A stretch of DNA of 32,000 bases from Thermodesulfobacterium commune DSM 2178 (GTDB lineage Bacteria > Desulfobacterota > Thermodesulfobacteria > Thermodesulfobacteriales > Thermodesulfobacteriaceae). The notes beneath the pieces were generated by a model that was not told the DNA's origin, searched no databases, and was given only the letters and a program-made list of their open reading frames with translations. A program made the translations under genes and the position numbers. The stretch is from NCBI RefSeq assembly GCF_000734015.1, contig NZ_CP008796.1:960001-992000 (forward strand), read 5' to 3'. Positions 6,164-27,851 of the stretch are shown one piece after another (within the stretch, counting starts at the first letter, position 1; every line of letters begins with the position of its first letter).

Positions 6164-6663
6164 TGGCTGGTTTTACCCATTTAGACTCCCAAGGCAATCT
6201 TTTTATGGTAGATGTAGGAGGAAAACCTGCGACTGAGAGAATAGCCATAGCTAAAGCTGAGGTAGTCTTTCCTGAAGAGATCTACCCTAAGGTGATATCC
6301 CAAGATATCCCTAAGGGAGATTTCTTAGCCTGTGCTAAGGTTGCAGGAATTTTAGGGGCTAAAAAGACTTCTGAGCTTATACCTCTTTGCCATCCTTTGC
6401 CCATCTCTAAGGTAGACCTTAATTTTAGGTTTATTCCTGAAAGGTATGTGCTTGAAATCGAGGGGATGGTAAAGACTGTAGGACAAACCGGGGTAGAGAT
6501 GGAGGCCTTGACCGCAGTAAGCATTGCTGCTCTTACCGTTTATGATATGTGTAAAGCCCTTGATAAGCGTATCAAAATCACCAACATCAGGTTGGTTTAT
6601 AAAACTGGTGGAAAAAGTGGTGAAGTAGTATTAGAAGAACAACCTGGAAAGGAGGATTTTTGA
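6163..6663 (+). CDS. moaC: Cyclic pyranopterin monophosphate synthase MoaC
   Basis: FTHLDSQGNLFMVDVGGKPATERIAIA and LIPLCHPLPI...GVEMEALTAVSIAALTVYDMCKA are MoaC hallmarks. The start overlaps the dnaJ stop by 1 nt (TAATG). Confidence 0.92.
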   Translation: MAGFTHLDSQGNLFMVDVGGKPATERIAIAKAEVVFPEEIYPKVISQDIPKGDFLACAKVAGILGAKKTSELIPLCHPLPISKVDLNFRFIPERYVLEIEGMVKTVGQTGVEMEALTAVSIAALTVYDMCKALDKRIKITNIRLVYKTGGKSGEVVLEEQPGKEDF

Positions 6664-7025
6664 TGGATAAGGAAAAATTAGCCATGTTCAAAGAACTTTT
6701 GCTTAAACGCCGCGAAGAAATTCTAAAGGATGTTTTAGAAACCAAAAAAGAGTTGGTGGAAGAGTATGAACCTTTAGCAGACGCCATCGATCAGGCTACA
6801 CGTGAGAGTAATCTGGCTTTTGAGTTAAGACTAAGAGACAGAGAACAAAAACTGTTAAAAAAGATAGACAAAGCCCTAAAAAAAATAGAAGATGGGACCT
6901 ATGGAATATGTGAAGCCTGCGGAGAAGAAATAGACGAAAAAAGGCTTCTTGCAAGACCTGAGGCCACCCTTTGTATTGAATGTAAAAAAGCCCAGGAAAG
7001 GATGGAAAAAATCAGAGGAGAATAA
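6663..7025 (+). CDS. dksA: DksA/TraR-family C4 zinc-finger RNA polymerase-binding protein
   Basis: The coiled-coil region carries a DxxDxA tip motif (DAIDQA). The C-terminal zinc finger is CEACGEEI...CIECK. I prefer ATG 6663 (SD GGAAAGGAGGA upstream; TGATG overlap with the moaC stop) over the TTG at 6660 used by the ORF track. Confidence 0.85.
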   Translation: MDKEKLAMFKELLLKRREEILKDVLETKKELVEEYEPLADAIDQATRESNLAFELRLRDREQKLLKKIDKALKKIEDGTYGICEACGEEIDEKRLLARPEATLCIECKKAQERMEKIRGE

Positions 7026-7041
7026 ATAATCTAAAAACTTC

Positions 7042-10000
7042 GTGAGGAATCAAGATAGATTTATCGAAATTCTTGAGGTTACACAGAATAACCTCAAGGG
7101 ATTTAGTTTAAAACTTCCTTTTTATCATCTGATAGCAGTTACCGGTGTTTCTGGGGCTGGAAAATCGAGTTTAGTTTTTGACACCCTTTTTGCCGAAGGC
7201 CAGAGACGTTATATAGAAACCTTTTCTTCGTATGTAAGACAGTTTTTCGAAAAACTCCCCAGACCTAAGGTTAAAGCTATCTTAAACATCCCCCCAGCTT
7301 TAGCCTTTCCTCAAGGAAATAGCATCAAAACTTCACGTTCTACGGTAGCTACCCTTACTGAAATTAGCCATTTTACCAAGATGCTTTATTATTACAACGG
7401 GGTCCCTTTTTGTCCTAACTGTAAAAAATACCTTCTACCTCAAACCCCACAGTCTATAGCCAAAGAGATTATCGAAAAATTTTATCAGGTACCACTCTAC
7501 CTCATAGTTCCTCAAAAACCGCAAGAAAGCTTTGAGCACCTCAAAGAAGGTCTACTTGCTGCAGGATTTTCAAGGGTCTTTTTAGATGGGAAGGTATGTG
7601 AAATAGACGAGATAGAAAAAGTCCCTGAAGAAATAGAATTAGTCATACATAGACTTAAGCCTACGGAAAAAGACCTCTTTGATCTTATATCCTCTTTAGA
7701 ACTCGGTTTTAAACTTTCTCCCTGGATCAAAGTTAGAACTATTTATGGAGAAGAGGCATATTATACCCAAGAAAAAAACTGTCCTCAGTGTGGACTTAAA
7801 ATACCCGAAAAAACCCCCAATTTATTCTCGTTTAACAGCTCGTTAGGGGCTTGCCCTGAATGCAAAGGGTTTGGAAACCTGTTAGTCTTAGACTTTGAGG
7901 CCTTGGTAAAACATCCAGAAAAACCTGCAACCAAAGGCGCTATCCCTATCCTTGATTTTCCTTTTTTGTTTGAGGTAAAACTGGACCTGATAGAGTTTTT
8001 AAGGACTAAAAACATAAACTTAAACCTTCCCTTTAAAGACCTCCCTGAAGAAATTAAGCAAAAAATCTTTTGGGGCGAAGGGGATTGGTACGGACTGAAA
8101 GAGCTTATAGACTGGCTTGAAAGTAAACGTTATAAACCCCATATAAGGATCCTTCTTTCAAAACTAAGAAGAGAAGTAAGCTGTCCTGTATGTAAAGGAA
8201 CCAGGTTTAACCCTCAAGCCTTGATGTTTTATGTCAACGGGTTAAACATCGGAGATTTTTACAGTTTAGAAATTAAAGAAGCGGTTAAGTTTATTCAAAA
8301 CTTTTTAGAACAAAAACCTCAGCCTGCGGAAGAGAGGCTGGCTAAAGAAATATTAAAACGTCTCTCCTATCTTGAAGAAGTAGGGCTTTCCTACCTTACC
8401 CTTAACCGAGCAAGCAAAACCCTTTCTGGTGGAGAAACCAGCAGATGTCTTCTAACAAGAGCTCTTTCCTCTAACTTAGTAGAAACCCTTTACTTGATAG
8501 ATGAGCCAACTACTGGACTTCATCCCAGAGATACCCAAAAAGTGTTAAAACTTCTTGAAAGATTGGTTTCTCAAAAAAACACTGTGGTGGTAGTAGAACA
8601 CGATCCAGAGATCATTACTCAAGCGGACCTTTTGATAGACTTAGGTCCAGAGGGAGGGGAAAAAGGAGGTCATCTATTATTTTTTGGACCTCCAAAAAAT
8701 ATTTTTAACACAAATACTCCTACAGCTGAAGCTTTAACCGAGATAAGCCAAAAAAGAACCTATTCTTTAACCCACTTTCAACCCTCAGGTTTTATCAGAT
8801 TTTATGGAGCTAAGAAAAACAACCTAAAAGGATTCTCTTTTTCTCTTCCGCTAAAAGCGATTACCTGCATAGTAGGGGTATCAGGGTCTGGTAAGTCTAC
8901 CCTTTTAGAAGATATAATTTATCAAGGCCTGGTCGACGCAAAGAATAAACATCCTTTAAAAACCTGTGAAAAGATCGAGGGAGTCAACCGGATCGACCAG
9001 GTGTTATACCTTACTCAGGAACCACTGGCTCGGTCCCCTCGCTCGGTAGTAGCAACCTATTTAGACATCATGGTATATTTAAGGAAGCTTCTTGCAAGTA
9101 CTAATACCGCAAAAAGTTTGGGATATACTGAAACTTGGTTTTCTTTTAACTCAGAACATGCCCAGTGTCCTGCATGCAAAGGTCTTGGTTTTGAGATAAT
9201 AGAGATGCAATTTTTATCAGACCTAACCATCCCCTGTGAGGTTTGTAAGGGGACCCGATTTAGGGAAGAGATTTTAGAAGTCAGATGGAGAGGGAAAAAC
9301 ATCGCTGAAATGTTAGACCTTACCGTAGAACAGGCTTTAGAGTTCTTCTCAGGACATACACCTCTCAAAAAAACCCTCACCCTCTTAAAAAATCTTGGGA
9401 TAGGATATCTCAAACTGGGGCAACCCCTTTCTACTCTTTCGGGAGGAGAAGCCCAAAGACTAAAAATAGCGGAATTACTCTCGAAAATAAAAGGAGAAAA
9501 ATGTCTAATCCTTCTTGATGAACCCACGGTGGGCCTTCATCTAAAAGATATAGAAAAACTGATTTCTTCTTTAAACTACTTAAAAAGCTTAGGGCACACG
9601 GTGGTAATAGTAGAACATCATCCCGAAGTTATCTTAAACTCTGATTGGATACTGGAGCTTGGTCCTGGGGGCGGAGAAGAGGGAGGAGAACTTCTTTTCC
9701 AAGGGCCCTTTTCTGAGTTTATCAAAAATCCAGAAGTACAGACTCAAACCTCTGTTTATCTAACAGAATATCTCGATGGCCTAAACCTTAAAGATAAAGC
9801 CGAAGCCCCCAAAAACTATCGCTACGACGAAGATCTTATAAAACTCAGAGGGATTAGGCATCATAACTTAAAAAACATAGACTTAAACCTACCAAGGAAA
9901 CAGTTGATAGTAATCACCGGGGTTTCTGGTTCTGGAAAATCTACCCTTGCGTTTGATGTGGTGTTTGCGGAAGGGCAAAGAAGATTTTTAGAAACTTTAC

Positions 10001-12291
10001 CCACTTATTTGAAACAGTTTTTTAAGCTTTATGAAGAGATAGATTATGATCTCATTTCAGGGATACCGCCTACGGTAGCGTTAGAACAGCGGTCAGGAGA
10101 ACTTTCTCCCAAATCTACGGTAGGGACTATTACCGAGATCCTTCCTTATCTTAGGCTTCTTTATTCTAAGGTTAGCAAGGCCTACTGTCCTAAATGTGAA
10201 AGGGAGCTAAAACCTCATGAACCAAAGGAGTTGTTTGACTTAGCTTTAGAGTTTTTAAAAAAAGAAAAAGCTTCAAACATTACCCTTCTTGCTCCTTTGG
10301 TAAAACACAGAAAAGGAATCTACAAAAATCTGTTTGATAAACTGCTTGCCAACCTATATCATAAGGTCAGAATAAACGGAGAATTCTACCACATTCCTCC
10401 TATCCCTGCTCTTTCAAGGTTTAAAGAATATACGATTGAGGTGGTGTTAGCTCAAGAAATAGATTGGCAAGAAGAGTGGTTTGAAAAGATTTTTTACAAA
10501 GGGCTTGAACTTGGAAAAGGAGAGGTTTTGATAAAAACCGATAAAAGGGAAGTACTTTTTAGTCAAAAAAGAACCTGCTCTTTATGTGGAATAAGTCTTC
10601 CTGAACCAGACCCGTTGCTTTTTGCCTTTAATTCAAAGGTAGGAGCTTGTCCTAATTGTGGAGGACTTGGTAGACTTGAAGAAAAACCATGCCCTGATTG
10701 TAACGGTTCAAGATATCGTAAAGAGGTTTTTTCTTATAAAATTAACGGAATTTCTTTGCCTGAATTGTCTAACTTAAGTCTCTACGAAGTAAAAAAATTT
10801 TTAGAGGGACTTAAGTTTGAAGGTATACAACAAAAAATAGCCGAAGAACTAATTTCTGAAACTCTCTCAAGACTTAATTATTTAATAGACTTAGGTGTAG
10901 GATATCTTACCTTAGGTAGGTCTGCAGACACCCTATCTTCAGGAGAAGCCAAAAGGGTAAGAATTTCAGCAGAAATAGGTAGCAATCTCACAGGGGTAGC
11001 CTATATCCTCGATGAACCTACCATCGGGCTTCATCCTAAGGATACACAAAAATTAATAGAGGTGTTAAAAAAACTCAGGGATAAAGGAAATACCTTGATA
11101 GTAGTTGAACATGACGAAGATACGATTTTGGCAAGCGACTTTATAGTAGACTTGGGACCAGGAGGAGGAAAAAGAGGAGGACAGGTACTTTTTAGCGGAC
11201 CTTCTAAAGAATTTTTAAGATCTTCCTCACCTACAGCTGAAGTAATTAAAGATCCAAACAGAAAAACCCTAAAAAGTTTTAAGCGCAATCCTAAGGAATT
11301 CTTAGTACTTAAAGAGGCTTCTCTAAGAAACCTTAAAAATATCAACGTTTCTTTTCCCTTAAACGCTCTTACGGTAGTAGTAGGAGTTTCAGGCTCAGGG
11401 AAGTCTACTTTATTAGAGGAATGCCTTTACGAAAATCTAAAAAGACTTTTAGAGGGAGAAAAAAACGTTATTTACGGTTTAAAAAACATAGAAAACTGGG
11501 AAAAAATCAAAAGGGTATATTTAGTAGACCACCAACCTATAGGAAACACCCCAAAATCTACCCCTGCTACCTATGTAGGAGTTTTTACCGACATCAGAAA
11601 GGCCTTTGCCAACACTTTATTGGCTAAACAACGAGGTTACAAAGAAGGCAGATTTTCCTTTAATACCAAAGAAGGGCAGTGTCCTTATTGCAATGGACAG
11701 GGATATGAAAAGATAGAGATTAAATTTTTACCTGCAGTTTATCAAAAATGTGAATACTGTGGAGGTAAACGATATAATCCAGAAACCTTAGAAATTTTGT
11801 TAAAAAATAAAAACATCGCAGAGGTCCTTGAGATGGACTTTGCTGAAGCTGTAGAATTTTTCAGCAACTACCCCTCGATCCAACATAAGCTTAAAATCCT
11901 TTGCGATATTGGCCTTGACTATCTAACCTTAGGACAGCCAAGTCCAACCTTGTCTGGAGGAGAAGCTCAGAGGATAAAGCTTGCCAAAGAGTTTATCAAG
12001 TCTTCTCAACCTGGGAACCTTTATCTTCTTGATGAGCCTACCACAGGACTTCACATAAAAGACGTAGAAAAATTAGCAGAACTCTTACAAGGTTTAATCC
12101 AGAAAGGGCATACAGTAATCGTGATAGAACATAACCTTGAACTTATCAAATGGGCAGACTGGGTGGTAGAACTTGGACCTGAAGGAGGAGAAAAAGGAGG
12201 AGAAATCCTTTTTCAAGGTCCGATAGAAGATTTCTTAAAAGCTTCTACCCCTACCTCTAAAATCCTTAAAAAATATCTTAAGTTGACCTAA
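7042..12291 (+). CDS. Tandem (double-length) UvrA-like excinuclease ABC subunit A: two complete UvrA modules in one 1,749-aa polypeptide
   Basis: Uninterrupted ORF from GTG 7042. There are four Walker A sites: GVSGAGKS at 7144-7167 and GVSGSGKS at 8875-8898, 9919-9942 and 11383-11406. There are four signature motifs: LSGGETSR, LSGGEAQR, LSSGEAKR, LSGGEAQR. There are four Walker B sites of the DEPT-x-GLH type. UvrA-type CxxC zinc modules occur in both halves, and both halves start with the UvrA N-terminus (...NLK..-L.LP...L...TGVSG.GKS.L.FD..FAEGQRR..ET). Module 1 is about aa 1-920 and module 2 about aa 930-1749. Confidence 0.9.
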   Translation: MRNQDRFIEILEVTQNNLKGFSLKLPFYHLIAVTGVSGAGKSSLVFDTLFAEGQRRYIETFSSYVRQFFEKLPRPKVKAILNIPPALAFPQGNSIKTSRSTVATLTEISHFTKMLYYYNGVPFCPNCKKYLLPQTPQSIAKEIIEKFYQVPLYLIVPQKPQESFEHLKEGLLAAGFSRVFLDGKVCEIDEIEKVPEEIELVIHRLKPTEKDLFDLISSLELGFKLSPWIKVRTIYGEEAYYTQEKNCPQCGLKIPEKTPNLFSFNSSLGACPECKGFGNLLVLDFEALVKHPEKPATKGAIPILDFPFLFEVKLDLIEFLRTKNINLNLPFKDLPEEIKQKIFWGEGDWYGLKELIDWLESKRYKPHIRILLSKLRREVSCPVCKGTRFNPQALMFYVNGLNIGDFYSLEIKEAVKFIQNFLEQKPQPAEERLAKEILKRLSYLEEVGLSYLTLNRASKTLSGGETSRCLLTRALSSNLVETLYLIDEPTTGLHPRDTQKVLKLLERLVSQKNTVVVVEHDPEIITQADLLIDLGPEGGEKGGHLLFFGPPKNIFNTNTPTAEALTEISQKRTYSLTHFQPSGFIRFYGAKKNNLKGFSFSLPLKAITCIVGVSGSGKSTLLEDIIYQGLVDAKNKHPLKTCEKIEGVNRIDQVLYLTQEPLARSPRSVVATYLDIMVYLRKLLASTNTAKSLGYTETWFSFNSEHAQCPACKGLGFEIIEMQFLSDLTIPCEVCKGTRFREEILEVRWRGKNIAEMLDLTVEQALEFFSGHTPLKKTLTLLKNLGIGYLKLGQPLSTLSGGEAQRLKIAELLSKIKGEKCLILLDEPTVGLHLKDIEKLISSLNYLKSLGHTVVIVEHHPEVILNSDWILELGPGGGEEGGELLFQGPFSEFIKNPEVQTQTSVYLTEYLDGLNLKDKAEAPKNYRYDEDLIKLRGIRHHNLKNIDLNLPRKQLIVITGVSGSGKSTLAFDVVFAEGQRRFLETLPTYLKQFFKLYEEIDYDLISGIPPTVALEQRSGELSPKSTVGTITEILPYLRLLYSKVSKAYCPKCERELKPHEPKELFDLALEFLKKEKASNITLLAPLVKHRKGIYKNLFDKLLANLYHKVRINGEFYHIPPIPALSRFKEYTIEVVLAQEIDWQEEWFEKIFYKGLELGKGEVLIKTDKREVLFSQKRTCSLCGISLPEPDPLLFAFNSKVGACPNCGGLGRLEEKPCPDCNGSRYRKEVFSYKINGISLPELSNLSLYEVKKFLEGLKFEGIQQKIAEELISETLSRLNYLIDLGVGYLTLGRSADTLSSGEAKRVRISAEIGSNLTGVAYILDEPTIGLHPKDTQKLIEVLKKLRDKGNTLIVVEHDEDTILASDFIVDLGPGGGKRGGQVLFSGPSKEFLRSSSPTAEVIKDPNRKTLKSFKRNPKEFLVLKEASLRNLKNINVSFPLNALTVVVGVSGSGKSTLLEECLYENLKRLLEGEKNVIYGLKNIENWEKIKRVYLVDHQPIGNTPKSTPATYVGVFTDIRKAFANTLLAKQRGYKEGRFSFNTKEGQCPYCNGQGYEKIEIKFLPAVYQKCEYCGGKRYNPETLEILLKNKNIAEVLEMDFAEAVEFFSNYPSIQHKLKILCDIGLDYLTLGQPSPTLSGGEAQRIKLAKEFIKSSQPGNLYLLDEPTTGLHIKDVEKLAELLQGLIQKGHTVIVIEHNLELIKWADWVVELGPEGGEKGGEILFQGPIEDFLKASTPTSKILKKYLKLT

Positions 12292-12366: not shown

Positions 12367-13032
12367 ATGAAAGCCTCTAAGATTATAGAAATAGACGAGG
12401 AACTCTGCAATGGATGTGGTCAGTGTGTAATTGCCTGCCACGAAGGGGCGATAGCTATCGTCAATGGCAAGGCTAAGCTTGTAGCAGAAGAGGTATGTGA
12501 CGGGCTTGGGGCTTGCATAGGTGAATGTCCTACCGGTGCTATAAAACTTATAGAAAAACCTCAAACTTCCTCTTTCTTACCTTGTGGATGTCCCTCTCAT
12601 CAAATTAAAGAGTTTATTCCTAAAAACCAACCTACTGGTGCAACCGAAATACCTTCTTCCCTTTCTCATTGGCCGGTTAAACTTAGATTAGTCCCGCCTT
12701 CTGCTAAATTTTTAAAGGGAGCTAATCTATTGATTTGTGCAGACTGTGTAGCCGTAGCTTATCCCCACCTTCATACCCATCTTCTTCCTGGCAAGAAAAT
12801 CCTAACGGGATGTCCTAAGTTTGACCCACCTGAGTTATACTGGGAAAATTTATCTGAGATTTTACATCAAGCCCAACCGAATGGTTTAGAAATAGCCATC
12901 ATGGAAGTGCCTTGTTGCAAAAATTTGGTTAAACTGCTCTTAGACGTAAGAAAAACTTTAAGCCAAAAACTTCCCTTTAAGGTCTACACCATTAGTATAG
13001 ACGGAAGGCTTAAAGATATAGAGGAGGTTTAA
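12367..13032 (+). CDS. Uncharacterised Fe-S protein: N-terminal 2x[4Fe-4S]-ferredoxin-like domain plus Cys-rich C-terminal domain
   Basis: The first motif is C14-x2-C17-x2-C20-x3-C24. The second is atypical, C44-x5-C50-x3-C54-P. Further cysteines follow: C73-x-C75, C124-x2-C127, C149 (GCPKFD) and C183-C184 (MEVPCC). SD AAGGAGGG lies upstream of ATG 12367. Confidence 0.7.
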   Translation: MKASKIIEIDEELCNGCGQCVIACHEGAIAIVNGKAKLVAEEVCDGLGACIGECPTGAIKLIEKPQTSSFLPCGCPSHQIKEFIPKNQPTGATEIPSSLSHWPVKLRLVPPSAKFLKGANLLICADCVAVAYPHLHTHLLPGKKILTGCPKFDPPELYWENLSEILHQAQPNGLEIAIMEVPCCKNLVKLLLDVRKTLSQKLPFKVYTISIDGRLKDIEEV

Positions 13033-13035
13033 AGG

Positions 13036-13701
13036 ATGAAACAAGATATGGTTATGCCCTATGGAATTTCATCTGTAGCTTACGAGATTATTACCTGCTT
13101 TGGTCCAAAAGGATGTCCTAACGCTATAAACCGTCCTCTCGAGCTTATAAAAACCCTTGAAAATGTACTTAAAAACTCTCAACTGGATGATTTTATAAAA
13201 AACAAACTAAAAGGGCAACCTTTAAAACCCCATCACCGGTTTAAAGTCTCCATTTCAGACTGTCCGAACGGGTGTTCCCAGCTTTATATCGCTGACTTTG
13301 GAATCCATAGTTTTGTTAAAATAAAACACGATGATAGTTTGTGCACTCTATGTGACAATTGTGTAATTTCTTGTGAGGAAGGGGCGATTAAAAAAGTCGA
13401 TCAAAAAATTGTAATAGACAATAAAAAATGTATAGGATGTGGTGGATGTATAAAAGCTTGTCCTGAAGGAGCTATAAAAGAAACCTATAGAGGTTATAAA
13501 ATCTACGTCGGAGGGAAACTGGGGAGACATCCAAGACTGGCTTCCTTTTTAACCAAGGCTTCACCTGAAGAAGTTCCGGTTTACTTGAAAAACTTGATAG
13601 AGTTTTACCAAAACCACAACGAAAAAGGAGAAAGGGTGGGGGCTATGATAGAAAAGATGGGATGGCAAAAGGTAAAAAAACTTTTAAACCAAAAATCCTA
13701 A
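13036..13701 (+). CDS. Small sulfite/nitrite-reductase-like siroheme-[4Fe-4S] protein with inserted 2x[4Fe-4S] ferredoxin domain (low-molecular-weight SiR / Dsr-like protein type)
   Basis: C21-x5-C27 ... C76-x3-C80 (HHRFKVSISDCPNGCSQLYIADFG) reproduces the Cys-X5-Cys-Xn-Cys-X3-Cys signature of sulfite/nitrite reductase hemoproteins. The ferredoxin insert is C103-x2-C106-x2-C109-x3-C113 and C132-x2-C135-x2-C138-x3-C142-P, followed by GGKLGR. SD GAGGAGG lies 8 nt upstream, and the start is 3 nt after the upstream stop. Confidence 0.6.
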   Translation: MKQDMVMPYGISSVAYEIITCFGPKGCPNAINRPLELIKTLENVLKNSQLDDFIKNKLKGQPLKPHHRFKVSISDCPNGCSQLYIADFGIHSFVKIKHDDSLCTLCDNCVISCEEGAIKKVDQKIVIDNKKCIGCGGCIKACPEGAIKETYRGYKIYVGGKLGRHPRLASFLTKASPEEVPVYLKNLIEFYQNHNEKGERVGAMIEKMGWQKVKKLLNQKS

Positions 13702-14433: not shown

Positions 14434-17031
14434 CTATTTACATTCAGCCCAAGACTTACCAAAGGCAAAATTAACCTTAATAGGTACTTTCAGAACATAA
14501 TCAAGGCCTAAAAAACTGAAAGGAGCTTCCATCACCGAAGGAGCTATATCCTTTATCACCTCTACTTCTTCTTCTGGCACCTCAAGAAGAAGTTCGTCGT
14601 GAATTTGTAAAAGAAGACGGGACTTTAGCTTTTTCTGTTTAATTTGCCTATAAAGGGCTACCATAGCTACCTTGATAAGGTCTGCGGCAGAGCCTTGTAT
14701 CGGGGTATTTACTGCCATGCGAAACCCTAAGTCTCTTACAGTTTTATCAGAACTAAATACTTCAGGAATATAACGTTTTCTCCCGGCTAAGGTCTTAACA
14801 TACCCATGGTTTTTAACAAATTCTATCGTTTCTTCTATGTATTTTTTAACACCAGGATACCGCTGGAAATACCTTGTTATGATCTCTTCTGCCTCTTTTA
14901 CCGAAATTCTAAGCTCTTTACTTAAGCCGTAAGGACTCATCCCATAGGCAATCCCAAAGTTTATAGCCTTGCTAACCCTTCTCATTTCAGGGGTTACTTT
15001 ATCAGGAGTTACCCCAAATACCTCACAGGCTGTAAAGGTATGGATGTCCTGCCCTTCATTAAAGGCCTTTATAAGATTTTCGTCTTCAGAAAAATGAGCT
15101 AAAATCCTGAGTTCTATTTGTGAGTAGTCTAAACTACAAAGCCACCAGCCTTCTTCTGCTATAAATACTCTGCGAATTTCTAAACCTTCCTCTCCTTTTA
15201 TGGGAATGTTTTGCAGGTTTGGGTTTTGCGAACTAATCCTACCTGTGGCTGTTCCTGTTTGGTTAAACTCTGTGTGAATACGAGAAGTAAGGGGTCTGAC
15301 ATACCTTAAAAAAGGCTCAAGGTAGGTGCTCAATATTTTCTGAGTAGTACGATATTGCAAAAGAAGCCTGGCAAAGGGATGTAAAGGAGCTAGTTCTTCA
15401 AGCACCTCTGCGTCGGTAGAAGGAGCCGAACTTTTAGGAGTCCTTTTTATAGAAGGGAGATTCAGTTTATTAAAGAGGATTTCACCTACCTCTCTTGAAG
15501 AACGAGGATTAAATCTTTTTCCCGCAATCTTAAAAAGTTCTTCTTCGAGTTCTTTTATTTTCTCTCGATATTGTTGTACTAAAGTTTTTACATAAACCAA
15601 ATCAATCTTTATCCCAACTTCTTCCATCTCGTTTAAAACCATACTTAAAGGTGCCTCTACCTTAAACAACCAAGAAGAAAGCCCCTCTTCTTCTAACCTT
15701 GCTAAAAGCTCTTTACCTAACCTTCTTAAACTGACTACCTTTATCCTTGATAATTCTTCAGAAACCCTGTTTATTCCGTTAAGATTTAGGTCTAAGTATT
15801 CCTGAAATAAAAAGTTTAAATCATAAGCCTTTAATCCGGGATTTAAAAGATAAGCTGCTAACTTTACGTCTAAGGGATGAGAAAATGAAATCTTGTAGTT
15901 TTTAAGCCAGTTTTTGTAGTCATAAACCACATAAATACCTTGTTCCTCAGCCAATCTTTTACACTCTTCTAAAGTCAACCTATAGACCTCTTCTTCAGAA
16001 AAAGAAATCAAAAAATCCGAAGGCTGCAAATTACCAAAAAGGCCTTTATTTAGATTTTCAGGCAAAACAGCTATTACCGAGTCTTTTTTTACCGTATTAA
16101 ATAAATCTGGATGGGCTTTTCTTATCTTTGGTGGTTTTGGTAAAGTTTCTTGGGGTAAAGAAAGCTCTGAAAGAAGTTTTCTAAACTCAAGTTCTTTAAA
16201 AAGGGCTTTAAGTGTAGGATAGTCAGGGTCTTTTCTTCGATAGAATTCAAGGTCCTCTGAAGGGAGAGGGGCTTCCAGATTGAGCTTAATAAGATCAAGG
16301 TTTTTAAACACCTGTTCTTGATATTTTCTCAAATTTTCTCTTATTTTTTTAGAAGAAATTAAAGAAAGATTGTCATAAATCCCTGTCAAGGTCTTAAATT
16401 TTATGAGCAACTCTTTAGCGGTTTTTTCTCCTATCCCTGGGACTCCGGGTATGTTATCGCTTTTATCACCTACCAAAGCTCTAAATTCAGGGAAAAGCTC
16501 TGGGGAAAATCCATATTTTTGAATAAAACCTTCTTTATCTAAAAAAACTTCTCTTACCGGGTCATAAATCCTTACTCTATCAGAAACAAGAGCATATAAG
16601 TCTTTATCCCCAGCCACTATGATAGCCTTATGAGAAGTTTCTGTTGATGGAGACAAGATAAATCTTTTGACAAAACTTGCTATCAAGTCGTCCGCTTCAT
16701 ATCCAGGAGCTGAAACCAAAGGAATCCCTAAAGCAGAAATGATTTTTTTTATGTAAGGTATTTGGATCTTTAGATCGTCTGGCATTTGAGGCCTGGTAGC
16801 CTTATATCCTTCGTAAGCCTTATGTCTAAATGTAGGCTCTTTTTCATCCATAAACCAGACTATATACTCAGGGTCCCATTCTTTTAAAATTTTAAGTACC
16901 ATCTGAGTGACACCGAAAACAGCTTTGGTAGGTAGCCCTTTAGAAGTAGCTAAATATCCAGGAATAGCAAAATAAGCTCTATAGATAAAAGAGGCCCCAT
17001 CTATAAGAATTATTTCTTTTTTGTCTACCAT
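14434..17031 (-). CDS. polA: DNA polymerase I (5'-nuclease + vestigial 3'-5' exonuclease + polymerase domains)
   Basis: The 5'-nuclease region reads GDKSDNIPGVPGIGEKTA. Pol motif A is SLDYSQIELRILAH, motif B is RRVSKAINFGIAYG and motif C is QIHDELLLE. SD AGGAGGTG lies upstream of ATG 17031. Confidence 0.95.
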   Translation of the reverse strand: MVDKKEIILIDGASFIYRAYFAIPGYLATSKGLPTKAVFGVTQMVLKILKEWDPEYIVWFMDEKEPTFRHKAYEGYKATRPQMPDDLKIQIPYIKKIISALGIPLVSAPGYEADDLIASFVKRFILSPSTETSHKAIIVAGDKDLYALVSDRVRIYDPVREVFLDKEGFIQKYGFSPELFPEFRALVGDKSDNIPGVPGIGEKTAKELLIKFKTLTGIYDNLSLISSKKIRENLRKYQEQVFKNLDLIKLNLEAPLPSEDLEFYRRKDPDYPTLKALFKELEFRKLLSELSLPQETLPKPPKIRKAHPDLFNTVKKDSVIAVLPENLNKGLFGNLQPSDFLISFSEEEVYRLTLEECKRLAEEQGIYVVYDYKNWLKNYKISFSHPLDVKLAAYLLNPGLKAYDLNFLFQEYLDLNLNGINRVSEELSRIKVVSLRRLGKELLARLEEEGLSSWLFKVEAPLSMVLNEMEEVGIKIDLVYVKTLVQQYREKIKELEEELFKIAGKRFNPRSSREVGEILFNKLNLPSIKRTPKSSAPSTDAEVLEELAPLHPFARLLLQYRTTQKILSTYLEPFLRYVRPLTSRIHTEFNQTGTATGRISSQNPNLQNIPIKGEEGLEIRRVFIAEEGWWLCSLDYSQIELRILAHFSEDENLIKAFNEGQDIHTFTACEVFGVTPDKVTPEMRRVSKAINFGIAYGMSPYGLSKELRISVKEAEEIITRYFQRYPGVKKYIEETIEFVKNHGYVKTLAGRKRYIPEVFSSDKTVRDLGFRMAVNTPIQGSAADLIKVAMVALYRQIKQKKLKSRLLLQIHDELLLEVPEEEVEVIKDIAPSVMEAPFSFLGLDYVLKVPIKVNFAFGKSWAECK

Positions 17032-18999: not shown

Positions 19000-19365
19000 A
19001 TGGAAACTATTTTAACGGTTTTACAGTTAATAGTAGCCATATTGATAATTTTGATTGTTTTGATAAACGTAACCAAAGGTTCAGAATACGGTGCGGTGTT
19101 TAGAGGGGCTGAGGCCATCTTTGGTGGTGCAGGCCCCACTAGCTTTTTAAACAAAGTAACGATGATTTTGGTGTTGGTATTTTTTTTAAACTCTATCTTA
19201 CTCACCAAAATCCACACCAGCAAAAATAAAACAGAAATTCCTGTCGTCCCTACCCCTCAAACTCAAACACCCTCTCCTTCTTCTATTCCTACCCCAACTA
19301 CCCCTCAAAATATTCCGGTGCCTCCTCAAATTCCTTCTTCTACCTCAGAAAAACCTAAAAACTAA
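19000..19365 (+). CDS. secG: Preprotein translocase subunit SecG with Pro/Thr/Ser-rich C-terminal extension
   Basis: Two TM helices flank a Gly-rich loop (KGSEYGAVFRGAEAIFGGAGPTSFLNKVT), as in SecG. SD AAAGGAGGA lies upstream. The tail at aa 85-121 is P/T/S/Q-rich. Confidence 0.65.
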   Translation: METILTVLQLIVAILIILIVLINVTKGSEYGAVFRGAEAIFGGAGPTSFLNKVTMILVLVFFLNSILLTKIHTSKNKTEIPVVPTPQTQTPSPSSIPTPTTPQNIPVPPQIPSSTSEKPKN

Positions 19366-20546: not shown

Positions 20547-21619
20547 CAGTAATTATAGCTTTATTAGTAATCGGTGTACTTATTTTTGTTCATGAGTTAG
20601 GTCATTTTATAGCAGCTAAGCTTATGGGGGTCAAAGTAGAGATTTTTTCATTAGGCTTTGGGCCCAAAATTATCGGTTTTAAAGCAGGAGAGACTGAATA
20701 CAGGGTGTCTGCCTTTCCTTTAGGTGGATACGTTAAACTTTATGGGGAACATCCTGAAACGTTGCCTTCGGTAGTCGAAAAAGACAAAGCTTTTGCCTTT
20801 AAAAAGCCTTGGCAAAAAGCGTTTATCGTGGTTGCAGGCCCTTTGGCTAATTTTATCCTCCCTGTCCTTCTATTTTGGTTTCTTTTTTGGGCCTCTGGTT
20901 CTTATCTTCTTTCTACCAAAATAGGAGAGGTTTTACCTGGTTCTCCAGCTGAAAAAGCGGGTCTTGCTCCTGGAGATGAAATCATAGAAGTAAACGGCAA
21001 AAAGGTCAAGTCTTTTGACCAGCTTATCCTATATCTAAAAAGCCAGGAGATGGTAAAAGAAGTTTCCCTTAAAATAAAGAGAAACTCTCAAGAGTTAGAG
21101 GTAAAAATCATTCCTGAGATGAAAGAAGGATACAACCTCTTTGGGAAAAAAACTCAGGTGCCTTTTATCGGTGTCAAGTCAACCCAAGAGGTAGTTCATC
21201 AAAGGCACGGTTTTATTGAATCCTTTGTCCTTGCTGTAGAAAAGGTAGTAGACATCACTACCCTTACCTTCGTAGCTATCTTTAAGCTCTTTACAGGAGA
21301 ATTGCCTTTTTCTACGTTAGGAGGTCCTATTACCATCGGGAAAATGGCAGGAGATACAGCTAAACTAGGGATTTATCCTCTTATTTCTTTTACTGGGCTT
21401 CTTTCGATCAACTTAGGGATTATAAACCTTCTCCCTTTACCTATGCTTGACGGAGGCCATTTAGTCATTTTTGGTATAGAGGCCATCAGAGGAAAACCTT
21501 TATCCCTAAAAACCCAAGAGCTTATCCTTAAAATAGGACTTTTTATCATCATTGCTCTAAGTATAGCTGTGTTTTACAACGACATCCTTAAACTTCTTAG
21601 CGGATGGAAACTCCCTTAG
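20540..21619 (+). CDS. rseP: RIP (site-2) zinc metalloprotease RseP
   Basis: HELGH zinc motif in TM1, a PDZ domain (GSPAEKAGLAPGDEIIEVNGK) and a C-terminal NLLPLPMLDGGH motif. The classic dxr-rseP synteny is present, with a 7-nt overlap with dxr. Confidence 0.93.
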   Translation: MLTVIIALLVIGVLIFVHELGHFIAAKLMGVKVEIFSLGFGPKIIGFKAGETEYRVSAFPLGGYVKLYGEHPETLPSVVEKDKAFAFKKPWQKAFIVVAGPLANFILPVLLFWFLFWASGSYLLSTKIGEVLPGSPAEKAGLAPGDEIIEVNGKKVKSFDQLILYLKSQEMVKEVSLKIKRNSQELEVKIIPEMKEGYNLFGKKTQVPFIGVKSTQEVVHQRHGFIESFVLAVEKVVDITTLTFVAIFKLFTGELPFSTLGGPITIGKMAGDTAKLGIYPLISFTGLLSINLGIINLLPLPMLDGGHLVIFGIEAIRGKPLSLKTQELILKIGLFIIIALSIAVFYNDILKLLSGWKLP

Positions 21620-22302
21620 TTTTAGCTATAGAAACAGCAGGGAAGTCTGGAGGTATAGCCCTTATAAAAGATAAGTTGTTAGGGGCTGTTACCTTAAGAT
21701 CCTCTCAGTCTTATTCTCAGATAATCTTTCAGTGTTTAACTTTTTTTGAAAAAAACTTAGGATTAGACCTAAAGTCCATAGACTACTATGCCATAGACCT
21801 TGGTCCAGGCAGTTTTACTGGACTAAGAGTTGGGCTTTCGGTGCTAAAGGGATTAAGTTTAGCCTTCCCTAAACCTGTGATACCTTTTGTTAGCCTTGAA
21901 GTGCTTGCGGTAGAAACCTTTCCAACAAACTTACCTGTGGTATCTCTGATAGATGCCTATAGCCAAGAAGTTTTTTTAGGTGTCTATAGATGGGAGGAAA
22001 ATAACCTAAAAACAAAGATTTCTCCTGTTTGCGTCTCAGTCAGAAATATACCTGATTTGATAAAAGAACCTACCTGGTTTGTTGGTGAAACCTTAGAAAA
22101 ATGGGAAACCTATCTGAAAGAGAGGTTAGGTCCTAATTTTTTAAAATGGCCTTTTACGATAGGTCTTACCTTGGAAAATGTGGCCAAACTGGTTTATTTA
22201 AAGCTAAAAAATAACGAATTTGAACTAAAATCTGCAGAAGATTTACTTCCTTTGTATTTAAAGGCATCTGAAGCAGAAAGAAAACGAGGCGATAAAAAAT
22301 GA
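21604..22302 (+). CDS. tsaB: tRNA t6A37 threonylcarbamoyltransferase complex dimerisation subunit TsaB (YeaZ)
   Basis: LAIETAGKSGGIALI...YYAIDLGPGSFTGLRVGLSVLKGLSLA matches the TsaB/YeaZ pattern. It overlaps rseP by 16 nt. Confidence 0.85.
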   Translation: METPLVLAIETAGKSGGIALIKDKLLGAVTLRSSQSYSQIIFQCLTFFEKNLGLDLKSIDYYAIDLGPGSFTGLRVGLSVLKGLSLAFPKPVIPFVSLEVLAVETFPTNLPVVSLIDAYSQEVFLGVYRWEENNLKTKISPVCVSVRNIPDLIKEPTWFVGETLEKWETYLKERLGPNFLKWPFTIGLTLENVAKLVYLKLKNNEFELKSAEDLLPLYLKASEAERKRGDKK

Positions 22303-23287: not shown

Positions 23288-24118
23288 ATGTCTTTAATAA
23301 AAGAGTTGTTAAAACATCGTTTAGGAACGGCTTCTTTAATAATCATTTTATTTTTAGCTGTTTTGGCTGTTTTTGCTCCTTATATAGCCCCTTATGACCC
23401 TTTGGAAATAAACGTAGACAACATACTTCAACCACCTTCCTTAGACCATCCCTTAGGAACTGACCTTTTAGGAAGAGACGTGTTAAGCCGTATGATCTAT
23501 GCCTCTCGGATCTCACTTGAGGTAAGTTTGGTGGCAGTAGGATTATCTCTGATGATAGGGGTAGTCTTAGGAGCGATAGCCGGCTACTTTGGAGGGTGGG
23601 TTGACCTGATTATTTGCAGGTTTATTGACATCATGCTTTGTTTCCCCACCATATTTTTGGTTTTAGCTATGGTAGCTTATTTAGAACCATCTATCGTTAC
23701 CATCATGGTGGTAATAGGTGCTACCAGCTGGATGGGATTAGCTCGTTTAGTAAGAGCTGAAATTTTATCCTTAAAAGAAAGAGACTTTGTGTTGATAGCT
23801 AAAACCTATGGGGCATCATCCTTAAGGATTTTATTTAAACATCTCATACCTAATGCCCTACCACCTATTTTGGTCTCTGCTTCCTTAGGACTTGGACAAG
23901 CCATTTTGATAGAATCTGCCCTTTCCTTTCTTGGAATAGGGGTACAGCCTCCCATCCCTTCCTGGGGGAATATGTTGATAGACGGTAAAGAGACCTTAGA
24001 AGTAGCCTGGTGGCTTTCCTTTTACCCAGGGATGGCTATTTTGATAACAGTTCTTGCGTTTACCATACTTGGAGAAACTCTACAGGAAATTTTAAATCCT
24101 AAAAGGAAAGAAAGATGA
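23288..24118 (+). CDS. ABC transporter permease, OppC/DppC type
   Basis: The OppC N-terminal pattern is PPSLDHPLGTDLLGRDVLSRMIYASRISL. The EAA-like loop is AKTYGASSLRILFKHLIPNALPPILV. Confidence 0.88.
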   Translation: MSLIKELLKHRLGTASLIIILFLAVLAVFAPYIAPYDPLEINVDNILQPPSLDHPLGTDLLGRDVLSRMIYASRISLEVSLVAVGLSLMIGVVLGAIAGYFGGWVDLIICRFIDIMLCFPTIFLVLAMVAYLEPSIVTIMVVIGATSWMGLARLVRAEILSLKERDFVLIAKTYGASSLRILFKHLIPNALPPILVSASLGLGQAILIESALSFLGIGVQPPIPSWGNMLIDGKETLEVAWWLSFYPGMAILITVLAFTILGETLQEILNPKRKER

Positions 24119-24363: not shown

Positions 24364-24981
24364 ATGGAATTTTTAAAAGATTTTGTGCAATATTTTTTAC
24401 TTTTTTTTGAAAAAAGTAGTTATTTAGGTGTATTTTTTTTGATGACCCTTGAGTCTACTTTAATTCCTATCCCAAGTGAAATAATCATCCCTCCTGCTGC
24501 TTACCTTGCCTATCAGGGTAAACTTTCCCTTTGGGGTGTTATCCTGGCAGGTACGTTAGGTAGTTGGGCTGGAGCTCTTATCAATTATTTTTTAGCCCTT
24601 AAGTTTGGTCGTCCGATGTTTTTAAGGTTTGTCAAACGATATGGTAAGTATATACTCCTAACCGAATACTCCTTTCAAAAAATGGAAAAATTTTGGGATC
24701 AACATGGGCATATCAGTACCTTCATAGGAAGGCTCCTTCCAGGACTTAGACATGTCATCTCTATCCCAGCGGGTTTTGCCAGGATGGGACTTTTTCTGTT
24801 TTCTTTTTATACCCTATTGGGTGCGCTACTTTGGTGTAGCTTCCTTGGTTTTTGTGGATATTTTTTTGGAAAAAACGAAGAACTTCTTAAAACTTACTTA
24901 GAACGTGGCTCTATAGGAATAGTAATCTTTTGTGGGGTGATTTTGGGACTTTATATCTGGTTCAAACTAAAAAGAAAATAG
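24364..24981 (+). CDS. DedA-family inner-membrane protein
   Basis: 205-aa multi-TM protein with the DedA/SNARE-associated pattern (FFLMTLESTLIPIPSEIIIPPAAYLA ... GSWAGALINYFLALKFGRP ... GRLLPGLRHVISIPAG). SD AGGAGGA lies upstream. Confidence 0.8.
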   Translation: MEFLKDFVQYFLLFFEKSSYLGVFFLMTLESTLIPIPSEIIIPPAAYLAYQGKLSLWGVILAGTLGSWAGALINYFLALKFGRPMFLRFVKRYGKYILLTEYSFQKMEKFWDQHGHISTFIGRLLPGLRHVISIPAGFARMGLFLFSFYTLLGALLWCSFLGFCGYFFGKNEELLKTYLERGSIGIVIFCGVILGLYIWFKLKRK

Positions 24982-24986
24982 ACTGT

Positions 24987-25643
24987 TTAATTACTTTGAG
25001 CTTGAATAACTCTTACGTCTTTAGGAGGTGAAAACTGAAAAAGGCTGTCTTTAAGGGATTTATTGTATTGCAAGTTGTTAAAAATTATCCTTAAGGTTTC
25101 TCCTGAAGCCATGTTCAAGATAACCTCTTTAACCTCTCCAGACTTAGGATTTACCACTAAAGAAATCCTTCTTACCTTCTGGTCGTTGTTAGCAGTTAAA
25201 AAGTTTAGTTTCCAAAAATCGTTATCCAAGGTTTGAAAACTTTCAACTTTTAGGTCTGTTTTAATATTTCCCCTTCCGGTCATAAATCCCAGGGCTAATT
25301 TAGAACCAAAGGTTGTGCCTGAAGGATAAACCAAGGCTTGTTTTTCTTCTGGATAGTAAAAGTATATACTTTTTCCAGAAGATATGATAAAAAGTTTTTG
25401 GGGCCTGTAGTATTCCCAACGAAATTTGCCAGGTTTTTTAATCCAGAGTCTACCTGAAGACACCTCTTTATGGCCTTGAGAAATATAGGCTTCCTGGATA
25501 AATTCTGCTTCAAGCGTCTGTATTGTTTGATAAAAATCTTGGATATGGTCTATGACCTCGTCTACAGTTTGGGCCTTAAGACTAAAGGGATTTGCGAGGG
25601 CCAATAACAGGGCGAGGACGAACACCATCACTTGGGCCAACAA
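24987..25643 (-). CDS. lolA: Outer-membrane lipoprotein carrier LolA-like periplasmic protein
   Basis: A hydrophobic signal-like N-terminus (VMVFVLALLLALANPFSLKA/Q) is followed by a LolA-type pattern (LEAEFIQE...SSGRLWIKKPGKFRWEY). It sits immediately downstream of ftsK, as in E. coli. The start is a TTG preceded by GGAGGAGGAAGG. The signal peptide lacks a basic n-region. Confidence 0.65.
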   Translation of the reverse strand: MLAQVMVFVLALLLALANPFSLKAQTVDEVIDHIQDFYQTIQTLEAEFIQEAYISQGHKEVSSGRLWIKKPGKFRWEYYRPQKLFIISSGKSIYFYYPEEKQALVYPSGTTFGSKLALGFMTGRGNIKTDLKVESFQTLDNDFWKLNFLTANNDQKVRRISLVVNPKSGEVKEVILNMASGETLRIIFNNLQYNKSLKDSLFQFSPPKDVRVIQAQSN

Positions 25644-27702: not shown

Positions 27703-27763
27703 CTTTCTACAATTTGGGTAATTTTTAATTAAAAATTTAAACCCGTTTTTATTAAAGTGAAAC

Positions 27764-27791
27764 TTGACAAATTTTTATTAAAAATTATAAC
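27764..27791 (+). promoter_or_regulatory. Candidate sigma-70-type promoter for the diguanylate cyclase gene
   Basis: TTGACA (27764-27769), a 16-nt spacer, then TATAAC (27786-27791). It lies about 60 nt upstream of ATG 27851. Confidence 0.4.
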
Positions 27792-27821
27792 ATAACTTCT
27801 GATAAAAACACTATCACATTT

Positions 27822-27851
27822 AGTTTTAGAACGTTAAGTTTTAGAATGTTA
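27822..27851 (+). repeat. Tandem direct 15-mer repeat abutting the start codon of the GGDEF gene
   Basis: AGTTTTAGAACGTTA (27822-27836) and AGTTTTAGAATGTTA (27837-27851) are 14/15 identical. The last base is the A of ATG 27851. Confidence 0.85.

Follow-up and report, generated by a model that had tools for sequence, protein, structure and literature searches.

Judged by its domain content, the double-length UvrA of Thermodesulfobacterium commune is a covalent tandem of two class-I-type UvrA modules. What is new in this analysis is that the two modules have decayed in a complementary manner: sequence comparisons show that the N module still has the insertion domain, together with residues at the UvrB-contact positions, but is without the RKG motif and two DNA-binding arginines, and that the C module presents the reverse picture. 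With a confidence that is only slightly above even, we read the gene as coding for a housekeeping UvrA-type DNA-damage sensor, in which both protomers of UvrA2 would be held in one chain of about 200 kDa that forms an asymmetric pseudo-dimer.

The tandem uvrA-uvrA gene occupies positions 7042..12291 on the + strand of the window, the 32,000-nucleotide stretch of DNA that was analysed, and is assigned from its ORF, translation, HMM families and nr match. As the preliminary description had read it, this is a single unbroken ORF of 1,749 aa with a GTG start. In nr the product is matched at 100% identity by ‘excinuclease ABC subunit UvrA [Thermodesulfobacterium commune]’; the gene is real and had been annotated before. 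Directly 5' lies dksA (6660..7025, +), the last gene of a close-packed run rpoZ-dnaJ-moaC-dksA, which is found in identical order in T. sp. TA1, and polA follows 2 kb downstream of the tandem gene. The GTG indeed stands 16 nt past the dksA stop without a Shine-Dalgarno motif just upstream, and a scan for promoters and terminators around the tandem gene returned none above background. The earlier remark that uvrB and uvrC are not nearby holds for the window ORFs scanned against Pfam, a scan that left out the ORFs of at least 100 aa at 19000-19365, 21604-22302, 23288-24118 and 24364-24981 (+) and at 24987-25643 (-); a syntenic relative has SecG and TsaD at the positions of 19000-19365 and 21604-22302. 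The surroundings are housekeeping, and form neither a biosynthetic nor a defence cluster.

The two modules are connected by a linker at about aa 914-928 (9781..9825, +), which appears as a gap between HMM envelopes and lies within LDGLNLKDKAEAPKNYRYDED. It is about 15-20 aa long and free of in-frame stop codons, and an internal start at the junction was rejected, the linker being without in-frame ATG, GTG or TTG. Could two adjacent uvrA genes have been merged here by a sequencing or assembly error? The junction is collinear and in frame, without indels or stops, in T. commune, T. thermophilum DSM 1276, T. hveragerdense DSM 12571 and T. sp. TA1, the last being a complete genome. These four Thermodesulfobacterium assemblies are independent, come from different species and show substitutions spread along the junction; since the reading frame is kept in all of them, the tandem is not an assembly artefact. 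Moreover, the fused gene and its neighbours occur in identical order in one complete genome and one metagenome contig, and full-length homologues of 1,705-1,981 aa are present in 118 of the 120 clusters listed, the other two being partial sequences. No point in favour of such an error was found; it is refuted for practical purposes, its probability being close to nil. A scan of Thermodesulfobacterium genome contigs with query-specific peptides located six orthologous tandem loci. The fusion is old, each module being nearer to canonical UvrA than to its partner module, which agrees with the preliminary description in its preference for an old fusion or duplication over an artefact.

Both modules run through the same domain order, namely ATP-binding I, zinc module 1 with the UvrB-binding domain, zinc module 2, signature I, and NBD-II with zinc module 3. 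Walker A motifs, identified by motif search and alignment on the + strand, begin at aa 35, 612, 960 and 1448 and belong to the N-module NBD-I (GVSGAGKSS, aa 35-43, 7144..7170), the N-module NBD-II (aa 612-620, 8875..8901), the C-module NBD-I (aa 960-968, 9919..9945) and the C-module NBD-II (aa 1448-1456, 11383..11409). They are accompanied by four signature motifs, four Walker B motifs and four H-loops, and twelve CxxC pairs account for three zinc modules in each half, among them C124/C127...C247/C250 and C1049/C1052...C1179/C1182. This inventory, down to the Walker A sites at 7144, 8875, 9919 and 11383, had been given correctly in the preliminary description. In a 44-sequence alignment with identities down to 40%, all Walker A, signature, Walker B and H-loop motifs and the 24 zinc cysteines are invariant; the two modules between them hold four ABC sites, all catalytically intact, and six zinc modules.

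Family models place the protein with class I UvrA. Against TIGR00630, the UvrA equivalog with a cut-off of 729.8 bits, the whole protein scores 1,785 bits, the N half 811 and the C half 980. Against NF001503 (cut-off 1,147 bits) the whole protein reaches 1,787 bits, and the N half with 803 and the C half with 983 bits each stay below the cut-off. The whole protein thus exceeds the equivalog cut-offs of both models, and each module has the two complete ABC sites and three Cys4 zinc modules of the class. Both modules also match solved UvrA structures full-length, with 704 bits for the N module and 796 bits for the C module against 3pih. With 35-43% identity in pairwise alignment, the halves are only moderately similar to each other, as had been noted by eye.

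Because regex parsing proved too brittle for diverse homologues, ten reference modules were used to build an HMM, with which the domain segments were scored. The N module (aa 1-913, 7042..9780, +) aligns end-to-end with residues 11-895 of T. maritima UvrA (3pih) and has an occupancy of at least 0.98 in all five segments. By sequence it is a full class-I UvrA architecture and the more divergent of the two modules, its core p-distance to T. maritima UvrA being 0.55 as compared to 0.48 for the C module. The C module (aa 929-1747, 9826..12282, +) aligns with 3pih residues 4-285 and 381-913, and thereby resembles a more canonical-like UvrA from which, however, the insertion domain is missing. The insertion domain of class I UvrA is present in the N module as a DNA-binding domain at aa 275-380 (7864..8181, +; Pfam UvrA_DNA-bind 24.1 bits, occupancy 1.00), which aligns continuously to its 3pih counterpart and is the sole insertion domain of the protein. 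In the C module there is no match to 3pih residues 286-380, the insertion domain of about 95 aa that makes up the DNA clamp and lesion pocket, and the occupancy is 0.04. Sequence, 3pih alignment and HMM agree on the zinc module 2 of the C module, CPNCGGLGRLEEKPCPDC (aa 1203-1220, 10648..10701, +), and since about 10 residues separate its CxxC pairs, the insertion domain is deleted at this point. The preliminary description was therefore mistaken in seeing two complete UvrA architectures.

It was right in stating that both modules retain the segment that corresponds to the UvrB-binding domain. Pfam UvrA_inter, with a cut-off of 23.3 bits, matches the N-module domain at aa 128-246 (7423..7779, +) with 31.5 bits and the C-module domain at aa 1053-1178 (10198..10575, +) with 54.4 bits, a difference which counts against the N-module domain as the UvrB binder. 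The residue pattern is distributed differently. R178, R204 and E220 of the N module stand at what we take to be the positions of E. coli R176, R206 and E222, the numbering being in part presumed, with D214 at the R216 position and RKG absent. The C module retains LAP..RKG (R1090, K1091, G1092) and carries K, V, W and Y at the positions of E. coli R176, R206, R216 and E222. The earlier suggestion that the second module is UvrB-binding-like hence stands for LAP..RKG but fails at R216 and E222, where W and Y stand in the C module and D and E in the N module, and where, among relatives, conservation is seen in the N module and not in the C module. In E. coli, R216A/E222A is a mutant of the UvrB-interaction surface, R712/R722/R724/R730 define a DNA-binding mutant, and UvrA without its insertion domain (ΔID) still supports incision of a short substrate with loss of specificity (PMC3025350). 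Since the N-module equivalent of R216 is D214 in T. commune, the canonical salt bridge is not intact. Two of the four signature-II DNA-binding arginines are lost from the N module, and the C module retains the DNA-binding arginines.

This division is upheld in a survey of 98 close and 22 remote relatives (n=120). RKG is found in the C module of all 98 close relatives, one remote relative has R or K at its first position, and no N module carries it. R206 is present in 119/120 N modules, with an arginine in the C module of just seven of the 98 close relatives, and E222 in the N module of 116/120 relatives. R730 occurs in the C module in 109/120, and the N-module position is never an arginine. 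At the R216 position N modules family-wide often retain the arginine; most Thermodesulfobacteria have E or D there. RKG, R206, E222 and R730 are all present in the canonical UvrA of T. maritima and in that of PDB 9gxk, except that the first RKG position is K in T. maritima. The idea that the halves could specialise thus gains support from the residue tables, and more strongly than the preliminary description could see.

How widespread is this arrangement? Double-length UvrA is not rare: the best 150 representatives of 50%-identity clusters are all two-module UvrAs or fragments thereof, and fall into at least nine domain architectures. The rarity and novelty attributed to the protein were overstated, given that it had already been annotated and that the chlamydial uvrA even has its own NCBIfam model. 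Among 123 complete representatives, the insertion domain is kept in the N module only in 40, in the C module only in five, and is lost from both in two; 30/123 are fusions of two class-II-type modules. In many lineages the linker can be down to about 15 residues long. Core-segment identity within the family is 0.40-0.53 for the N module and 0.43-0.55 for the C module, and the two are about equally conserved. Taken together, the sequence comparisons show a tandem architecture that is conserved, and under purifying selection, across Thermodesulfobacteriaceae and the wider family.

Within this family we define a family A, characterized by a divergent N module with an insertion domain and a canonical-like C module, to which the T. 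commune protein belongs: its modules group with their own kind, and the R206/E222 signature of the N module and the RKG signature of the C module match. In a neighbour-joining tree the N module of the query lies in a clade that holds N modules only (53 of them) and its C module in one that holds C modules only (51), and the 51 proteins that contribute the latter also contribute to the former. The C modules have as their sister the clade that contains canonical UvrA. A midpoint-rooted view of the tree was set aside, as one long branch dominated it. Bootstrap support is moderate, with a mean best-F1 of 0.96 for the N and 0.89 for the C clade and some mixing in 12/40 replicates; this measure was used instead of exact bipartitions, which recur in 0-2/40 owing to rogue taxa.

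Canonical class I UvrAs from E. coli, G. stearothermophilus (2r6f), T. maritima (3pih) and M. tuberculosis (3zqj) share the domain order and the intact ATPase motifs. They differ from the tandem in that the canonical enzyme is a homodimer, whereas the ‘protomers’ of the tandem are covalently joined and non-identical; in that the canonical dimer has two insertion domains and the T. commune protein one; and in that the tandem splits the canonical UvrB-contact and DNA-contact residues between its modules. The chlamydial UvrA (C. trachomatis CT333, 1,786 aa) is likewise a two-module single polypeptide annotated as UvrABC subunit A, and its family is described by NCBIfam NF001885/PRK00635, a model of 1,809 positions with a cut-off of 3,054 bits. 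The T. commune protein scores 1,231 bits against NF001885 in five pieces, below that cut-off, and does not group as chlamydial-type. Its best stretch, aa 1266-1747, pairs with model positions 445-920, so that the C module best matches the first module of the model, and two proteins collinear with NF001885 (P0268 and P0277) have the canonical-like module first. Because the arrangement of modules is reversed, T. commune and chlamydial tandems represent different fusion lineages. Class II UvrAs, such as D. radiodurans UvrA2 (2vf7), DrrC and Ecm16 (7sh1), are also UvrA-fold ABC ATPases that occur as extra paralogues, and tandem fusions of them exist. Both the UvrB-binding domain and zinc module 1 are absent from them (PMC9328131). 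Since each T. commune module possesses these two elements, with occupancies of 0.98 and 1.00, the tandem is not of class II, in line with what the preliminary description had argued.

These features suggest a way in which the protein might work. The N and C modules would fold back together like the canonical head-to-head UvrA dimer, and the outcome would be an obligatorily asymmetric pseudo-dimer. The N-module binding domain and the C-module signature-II would together build one canonical-like UvrB site, with the reciprocal site degenerate, and a single UvrB would be loaded beside the sole insertion domain. For the canonical enzyme it has been described that the two insertion domains (IDs) act asymmetrically and that a UvrA2UvrB1 intermediate exists (PMC11985968). 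The ‘recognition-ID/support-ID’ asymmetry, which the symmetric enzyme would adopt only on damaged DNA, would here be hard-wired. A further step, which is conceivable but which we put forward tentatively and rather doubt, is that sub-functionalisation after the fusion has left a single insertion domain together with a single composite site for UvrB docking, so that exactly one UvrB is loaded on a defined side of the lesion. If this were true, the tandem UvrA would permanently occupy a state that symmetric UvrA2 reaches only transiently, that is UvrA2UvrB1 with ‘recognition’ and ‘support’ insertion domains. A search of the literature for UvrA classes and for duplicated or fused UvrA, tandem forms included, returned no biochemical work on such double proteins, only the chlamydial gene length and papers on class I and II. 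A conceptual analogue may be seen in mismatch repair, where bacterial MutS is a homodimer that is functionally asymmetric and eukaryotic MSH2-MSH6 consists of specialised non-identical halves that arose after duplication. The path from homodimer to specialised halves would be shared, although MutS has an unrelated fold and, unlike the fused UvrA, consists of separate chains.

The protein could instead be an accessory paralogue that works beside a canonical UvrA and is not the sensor of nucleotide excision repair (NER), for example in the tolerance of particular adducts or intercalators. Such roles outside NER are well documented for UvrA paralogues (PMC9328131), and class II UvrAs like DrrC and Ecm16 work independently of UvrB and UvrC. 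The many fusions of two class-II-type modules among the tandem representatives point in the same direction, as does the fact that neither T. commune UvrB-binding domain has the full canonical contact set. One remote relative comes from an Azoarcus MAG and Proteobacteria normally carry a canonical uvrA, so that some members of the family are perhaps accessory paralogues. A second, canonical uvrA might also be present in T. commune, as the contig scan used query-specific peptides and matched orthologous loci only. Yet both modules retain the two elements that class II has lost, each half alone exceeds the TIGR00630 equivalog cut-off, the C-module clade is the sister of the canonical one, and the gene sits among housekeeping genes. 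The 1,786-aa uvrA of C. trachomatis, to our knowledge the only uvrA of that genome, also speaks against an accessory role. We consider this role unlikely, though it deserves to be taken seriously.

A related question is which modules pair. Canonical UvrA dimerises readily and the sequence holds no bar to pairing between chains, be it N with N' and C with C' or domain-swapped, which would give a four-module assembly with eight ATPase sites; a linker of only about 15-20 residues could even disfavour pairing within the chain. However, linkers near the lower end of this range in many lineages suggest that such a length suffices. Complementary residue loss is expected if N always partners C, but not if like pairs with like, and 45/123 architectures have lost one insertion domain versus the two that have lost both. 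Pairing between chains therefore seems improbable to us, more so than an accessory role.

If the tandem UvrA were an accessory paralogue, it would be merely another of many poorly understood UvrA-like proteins. As a damage sensor with both protomers in one chain it would bear on a debated matter, how a symmetric UvrA dimer comes to pass one DNA strand to one UvrB in an asymmetric manner; the stoichiometry, UvrA2B2 or UvrA2B1, is unsettled (PMC11985968). With a thermostable UvrA in a single chain, whose ‘protomers’ are not equivalent, one could mutate the four ATPase sites, the UvrB-binding domains and the insertion domain one at a time, something that no homodimer permits. What evolution has retained in each half can be regarded as a natural experiment that tells apart the elements a complex needs twice from those of which one copy is enough. 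Judging from these sequences, the tandem UvrA may be a natural version of the normal UvrA pair with the asymmetry built in.

The tandem uvrA gene is an uninterrupted open reading frame on the forward strand (7042..12291) that starts with GTG and encodes 1,749 amino acids. The preliminary description had placed this start 16 nt 3' of the dksA stop codon with no Shine-Dalgarno motif, and inspection of the sequence directly upstream bears out both statements; the orthologue in Thermodesulfobacterium sp. TA1, 85% identical and of equal length, starts at the same position. A regular-expression scan locates Walker A motifs at residues 35, 612, 960 and 1448, in exact agreement with the four nucleotide positions proposed earlier, and recovers the four signature motifs and four Walker B and H-loop sets that had been claimed, along with 12 CxxC pairs. 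All ATPase-motif and CxxC residues are invariant in a 44-sequence alignment reaching down to 40% identity. The whole protein scores 1,785 bits with the NCBIfam model TIGR00630 and 1,787 bits with NF001503, and each half exceeds the TIGR00630 cut-off of 729.8 bits (N half, aa 1-892, 811 bits; C half, aa 893-1749, 980 bits). Each half matches UvrA proteins of known structure from end to end.

Could such a gene be an assembly artefact? This is rejected on three grounds: an nr entry, 'excinuclease ABC subunit UvrA [Thermodesulfobacterium commune]', is 100% identical; the same gene and neighbours recur in T. sp. TA1, whose genome is complete, and on a metagenome contig of independent origin; and the junction DNA, although substitutions are dispersed along it, shows no indel or stop in T. 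sp. TA1, T. thermophilum DSM 1276 or T. hveragerdense DSM 12571. The junction is thus in frame in these genomes. A genome scan with query-specific peptides turned up nothing beyond orthologues of the tandem gene. The inspected inter-module linker contains no in-frame start codon.

The gene is flanked upstream by rpoZ, dnaJ, moaC and dksA, and downstream by two Fe-S proteins, a pseudouridine synthase and polA. In T. sp. TA1 (CP043908.1, here L002) an IS110-family transposase (DEDD_Tnp_IS110/Transposase_20; L002:8186-9385) lies between moaC and dksA and therefore separates the dksA-uvrA pair from rpoZ-dnaJ-moaC; neither the window nor the metagenome contig carries it. The Fe-S proteins are two adjacent 221-residue frames directly 3' of uvrA (12367-13701), one with a 4Fe-4S ferredoxin domain only, the other with NIR_SIR (sulfite/nitrite reductase 4Fe-4S) and ferredoxin domains, and the pair is kept in T. 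sp. TA1. Excision repair relies on DNA polymerase I to fill gaps; polA, which encodes this enzyme's 5'-3' exonuclease and family A polymerase domains, is found 2 kb downstream on the opposite strand (14434-17031, -). This proximity, also kept in T. sp. TA1, may be coincidental. Elsewhere in the window, positions 27001-28000 have the lowest G+C (0.283 versus about 0.38 outside this segment), spanning the 5' end of ftsK (- strand) together with the intergenic spacer that precedes a Cache/GGDEF diguanylate cyclase gene.

How common is this architecture? All 120 proteins listed by a first homology search have two modules, among them members of Caldimicrobium, Thermosulfurimonas and Thermosulfuriphilus and an Azoarcus MAG; 118 carry four Walker A sites and 12 CxxC pairs, the other two being partial sequences. 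A search of 1.84 billion cluster representatives, with only the C half as query, gave 8,456 proteins at E<=1e-30; the top 150 of these are without exception two-module proteins or pieces of such proteins (1,009-2,343 aa). We classified the 123 complete proteins among these 150 by presence (+) or absence (-) of the UvrB-binding (UB) and insertion (ID) domains in N module / C module. The type of our query, UB+ID+ / UB+ID-, accounts for 40, UB+ID+ / UB+ID+ for 36, and two class-II-type modules (UB-ID+ / UB-ID+) for 30; the remainder are UB+ID- / UB+ID+ (5), UB+ID+ / UB-ID+ (4), UB+ID+ / UB-ID- (3), UB+ID- / UB+ID- (2) and other architectures (3).

Chlamydia trachomatis also has a double-length uvrA (ct333; 5,361 bp, 1,786 aa; PMC6686042), and NCBIfam holds a 1,809-position model of this type, NF001885. 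The T. commune protein is not of the chlamydial type, as its match to the model is split into five pieces and scores 1,231 bits, below the cut-off of 3,054. The part of NF001885 that its C module fits best is the first module, whereas two representatives are collinear with the model, the canonical-like module coming first. From the homologue survey together with the chlamydial gene and model it follows that double-length UvrA is a known and widespread architecture, already annotated and common in public data. It probably arose more than once. In the literature searched we found no paper on its biochemistry or structure.

Some relatives show further variation. Two of them, P0139 (2,334 aa) and P0143 (2,343 aa), have a second module ending near residue 1,975-1,990, followed by about 350 C-terminal residues outside the coverage of the UvrA module HMM, which may be an additional fused domain. 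The two-module gene of another, P0109 (1,829 aa, both insertion domains), adjoins a reverse gyrase gene, called as two genes on one contig (270 + 851 aa, L003:16339-19759) and as one on a second (1,139 aa, L004:7473-10892), a difference that suggests a frameshift or an assembly difference.

Identity between the halves is 43% in the ATPase region and 35% in the N-terminal part. With the UvrB-binding and insertion domains left out (644 core columns), the two modules differ from each other by a p-distance of 0.57 and from Thermotoga maritima UvrA by 0.55 (N) and 0.48 (C); each lies nearer to the T. maritima protein than to the other module, in line with the earlier reading as an old fusion. In a crude neighbour-joining tree of 258 modules with moderate support, the query N module groups with N modules only, in a clade of 53, and its C module with C modules only, in a clade of 51 from the same 51 proteins; this C clade is sister to the clade holding the two canonical UvrAs. 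In 40 bootstrap replicates the N clade reaches a mean best-F1 of 0.96 and the C clade one of 0.89, and N and C modules mix to some extent in 12 of the replicates; rogue taxa caused an exact-split test of these clades to fail. Within the tandem family the two modules are conserved to a similar degree, so neither is decaying as a whole.

Two complete UvrA architectures had been described, which is true of the N module but not of the C module. While the N half aligns continuously with residues 11-895 of T. maritima UvrA (3pih), the C half matches residues 4-285 and 381-913 and offers no counterpart to 286-380; insertion-domain occupancy, from an HMM built on 10 reference modules, is 1.00 in the N module and 0.04 in the C module. 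The gene thus joins one complete module to one without the insertion domain. In the C module, zinc module 2 has about 10 residues between its two cysteine pairs ('CPNCGGLGRLEEKPCPDC').

What we consider the main new result is a complementary loss of canonical residues, seen on comparing two canonical sequences with both modules of 98 close and 22 remote relatives. The UvrB-binding domain of canonical UvrA combines a LAP..RKG motif with residues equivalent to E. coli R176, R206, R216 and E222. RKG is present in the C module of 98/98 close relatives (its first residue is K in one remote relative) and in none of the 120 N modules. Conversely, the equivalents of R176 (119/120), R206 (119/120) and E222 (116/120) are kept in N modules and show no conservation in C modules, so that the assignment of module 2 as the UvrB-like half holds for the LAP..RKG motif alone. 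The R216 position is arginine in 29/98 close and 22/22 remote N modules, and E or D in most Thermodesulfobacteria (D214 in the query). At these four positions the query N module reads R, R, D, E and its C module K, V, W, Y. In signature II of the query, the equivalents of E. coli R712/R722/R724/R730 are R, K, R, R for the C module and R, K, L, W for the N module; across the relatives, the R730 equivalent is arginine in 109/120 C modules and no N module. This E. coli numbering was derived partly from a T. maritima alignment (R217, E223) and partly from the E. coli sequence, and the equivalences are provisional. In E. coli, R216A/E222A disrupts the UvrB interaction surface and R712A/R722A/R724A/R730A disrupts DNA binding, and UvrA lacking residues 290-400, the insertion domain, retains short-substrate incision with reduced damage specificity (PMC3025350). 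As far as could be found, such complementary specialisation of the two modules is undescribed.

UvrA acts as a head-to-head dimer. On damaged DNA its two insertion domains differ, one serving 'recognition' and the other 'support', and a UvrA2UvrB1 intermediate forms (PMC11985968). We propose that the protein is a single-chain pseudo-dimer whose N module folds back on its C module, and in which either module, because permanently paired, could lose what its partner supplies. The N-module UvrB-binding domain and the C-module signature II would then build a single UvrB site of canonical-like form next to the one insertion domain, its reciprocal counterpart having decayed in both parts; from this single site the model predicts that one UvrB is loaded per molecule. 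Three observations speak against it: the T. commune N module lacks the R216 arginine, the Pfam UvrB-interaction score is higher for the C-module domain (54 bits versus 31), and the linker of about 15-20 residues may fall short of the distance to be spanned. The protein might instead be an accessory paralogue rather than a sensor of nucleotide excision repair, given that many UvrA paralogues have other roles (PMC9328131) and that one tandem-family member comes from a proteobacterial MAG; yet the housekeeping gene context, the UvrB-binding domain in both modules and the canonical-like C module speak against this less likely reading.

Apart from the missing insertion domain and the choice of the UvrB-like half, the preliminary description was right, and the tandem uvrA is real, ancient and conserved. 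With its modules specialised in complementary ways, the tandem UvrA would be a useful natural system for studying a question still under debate in nucleotide excision repair.
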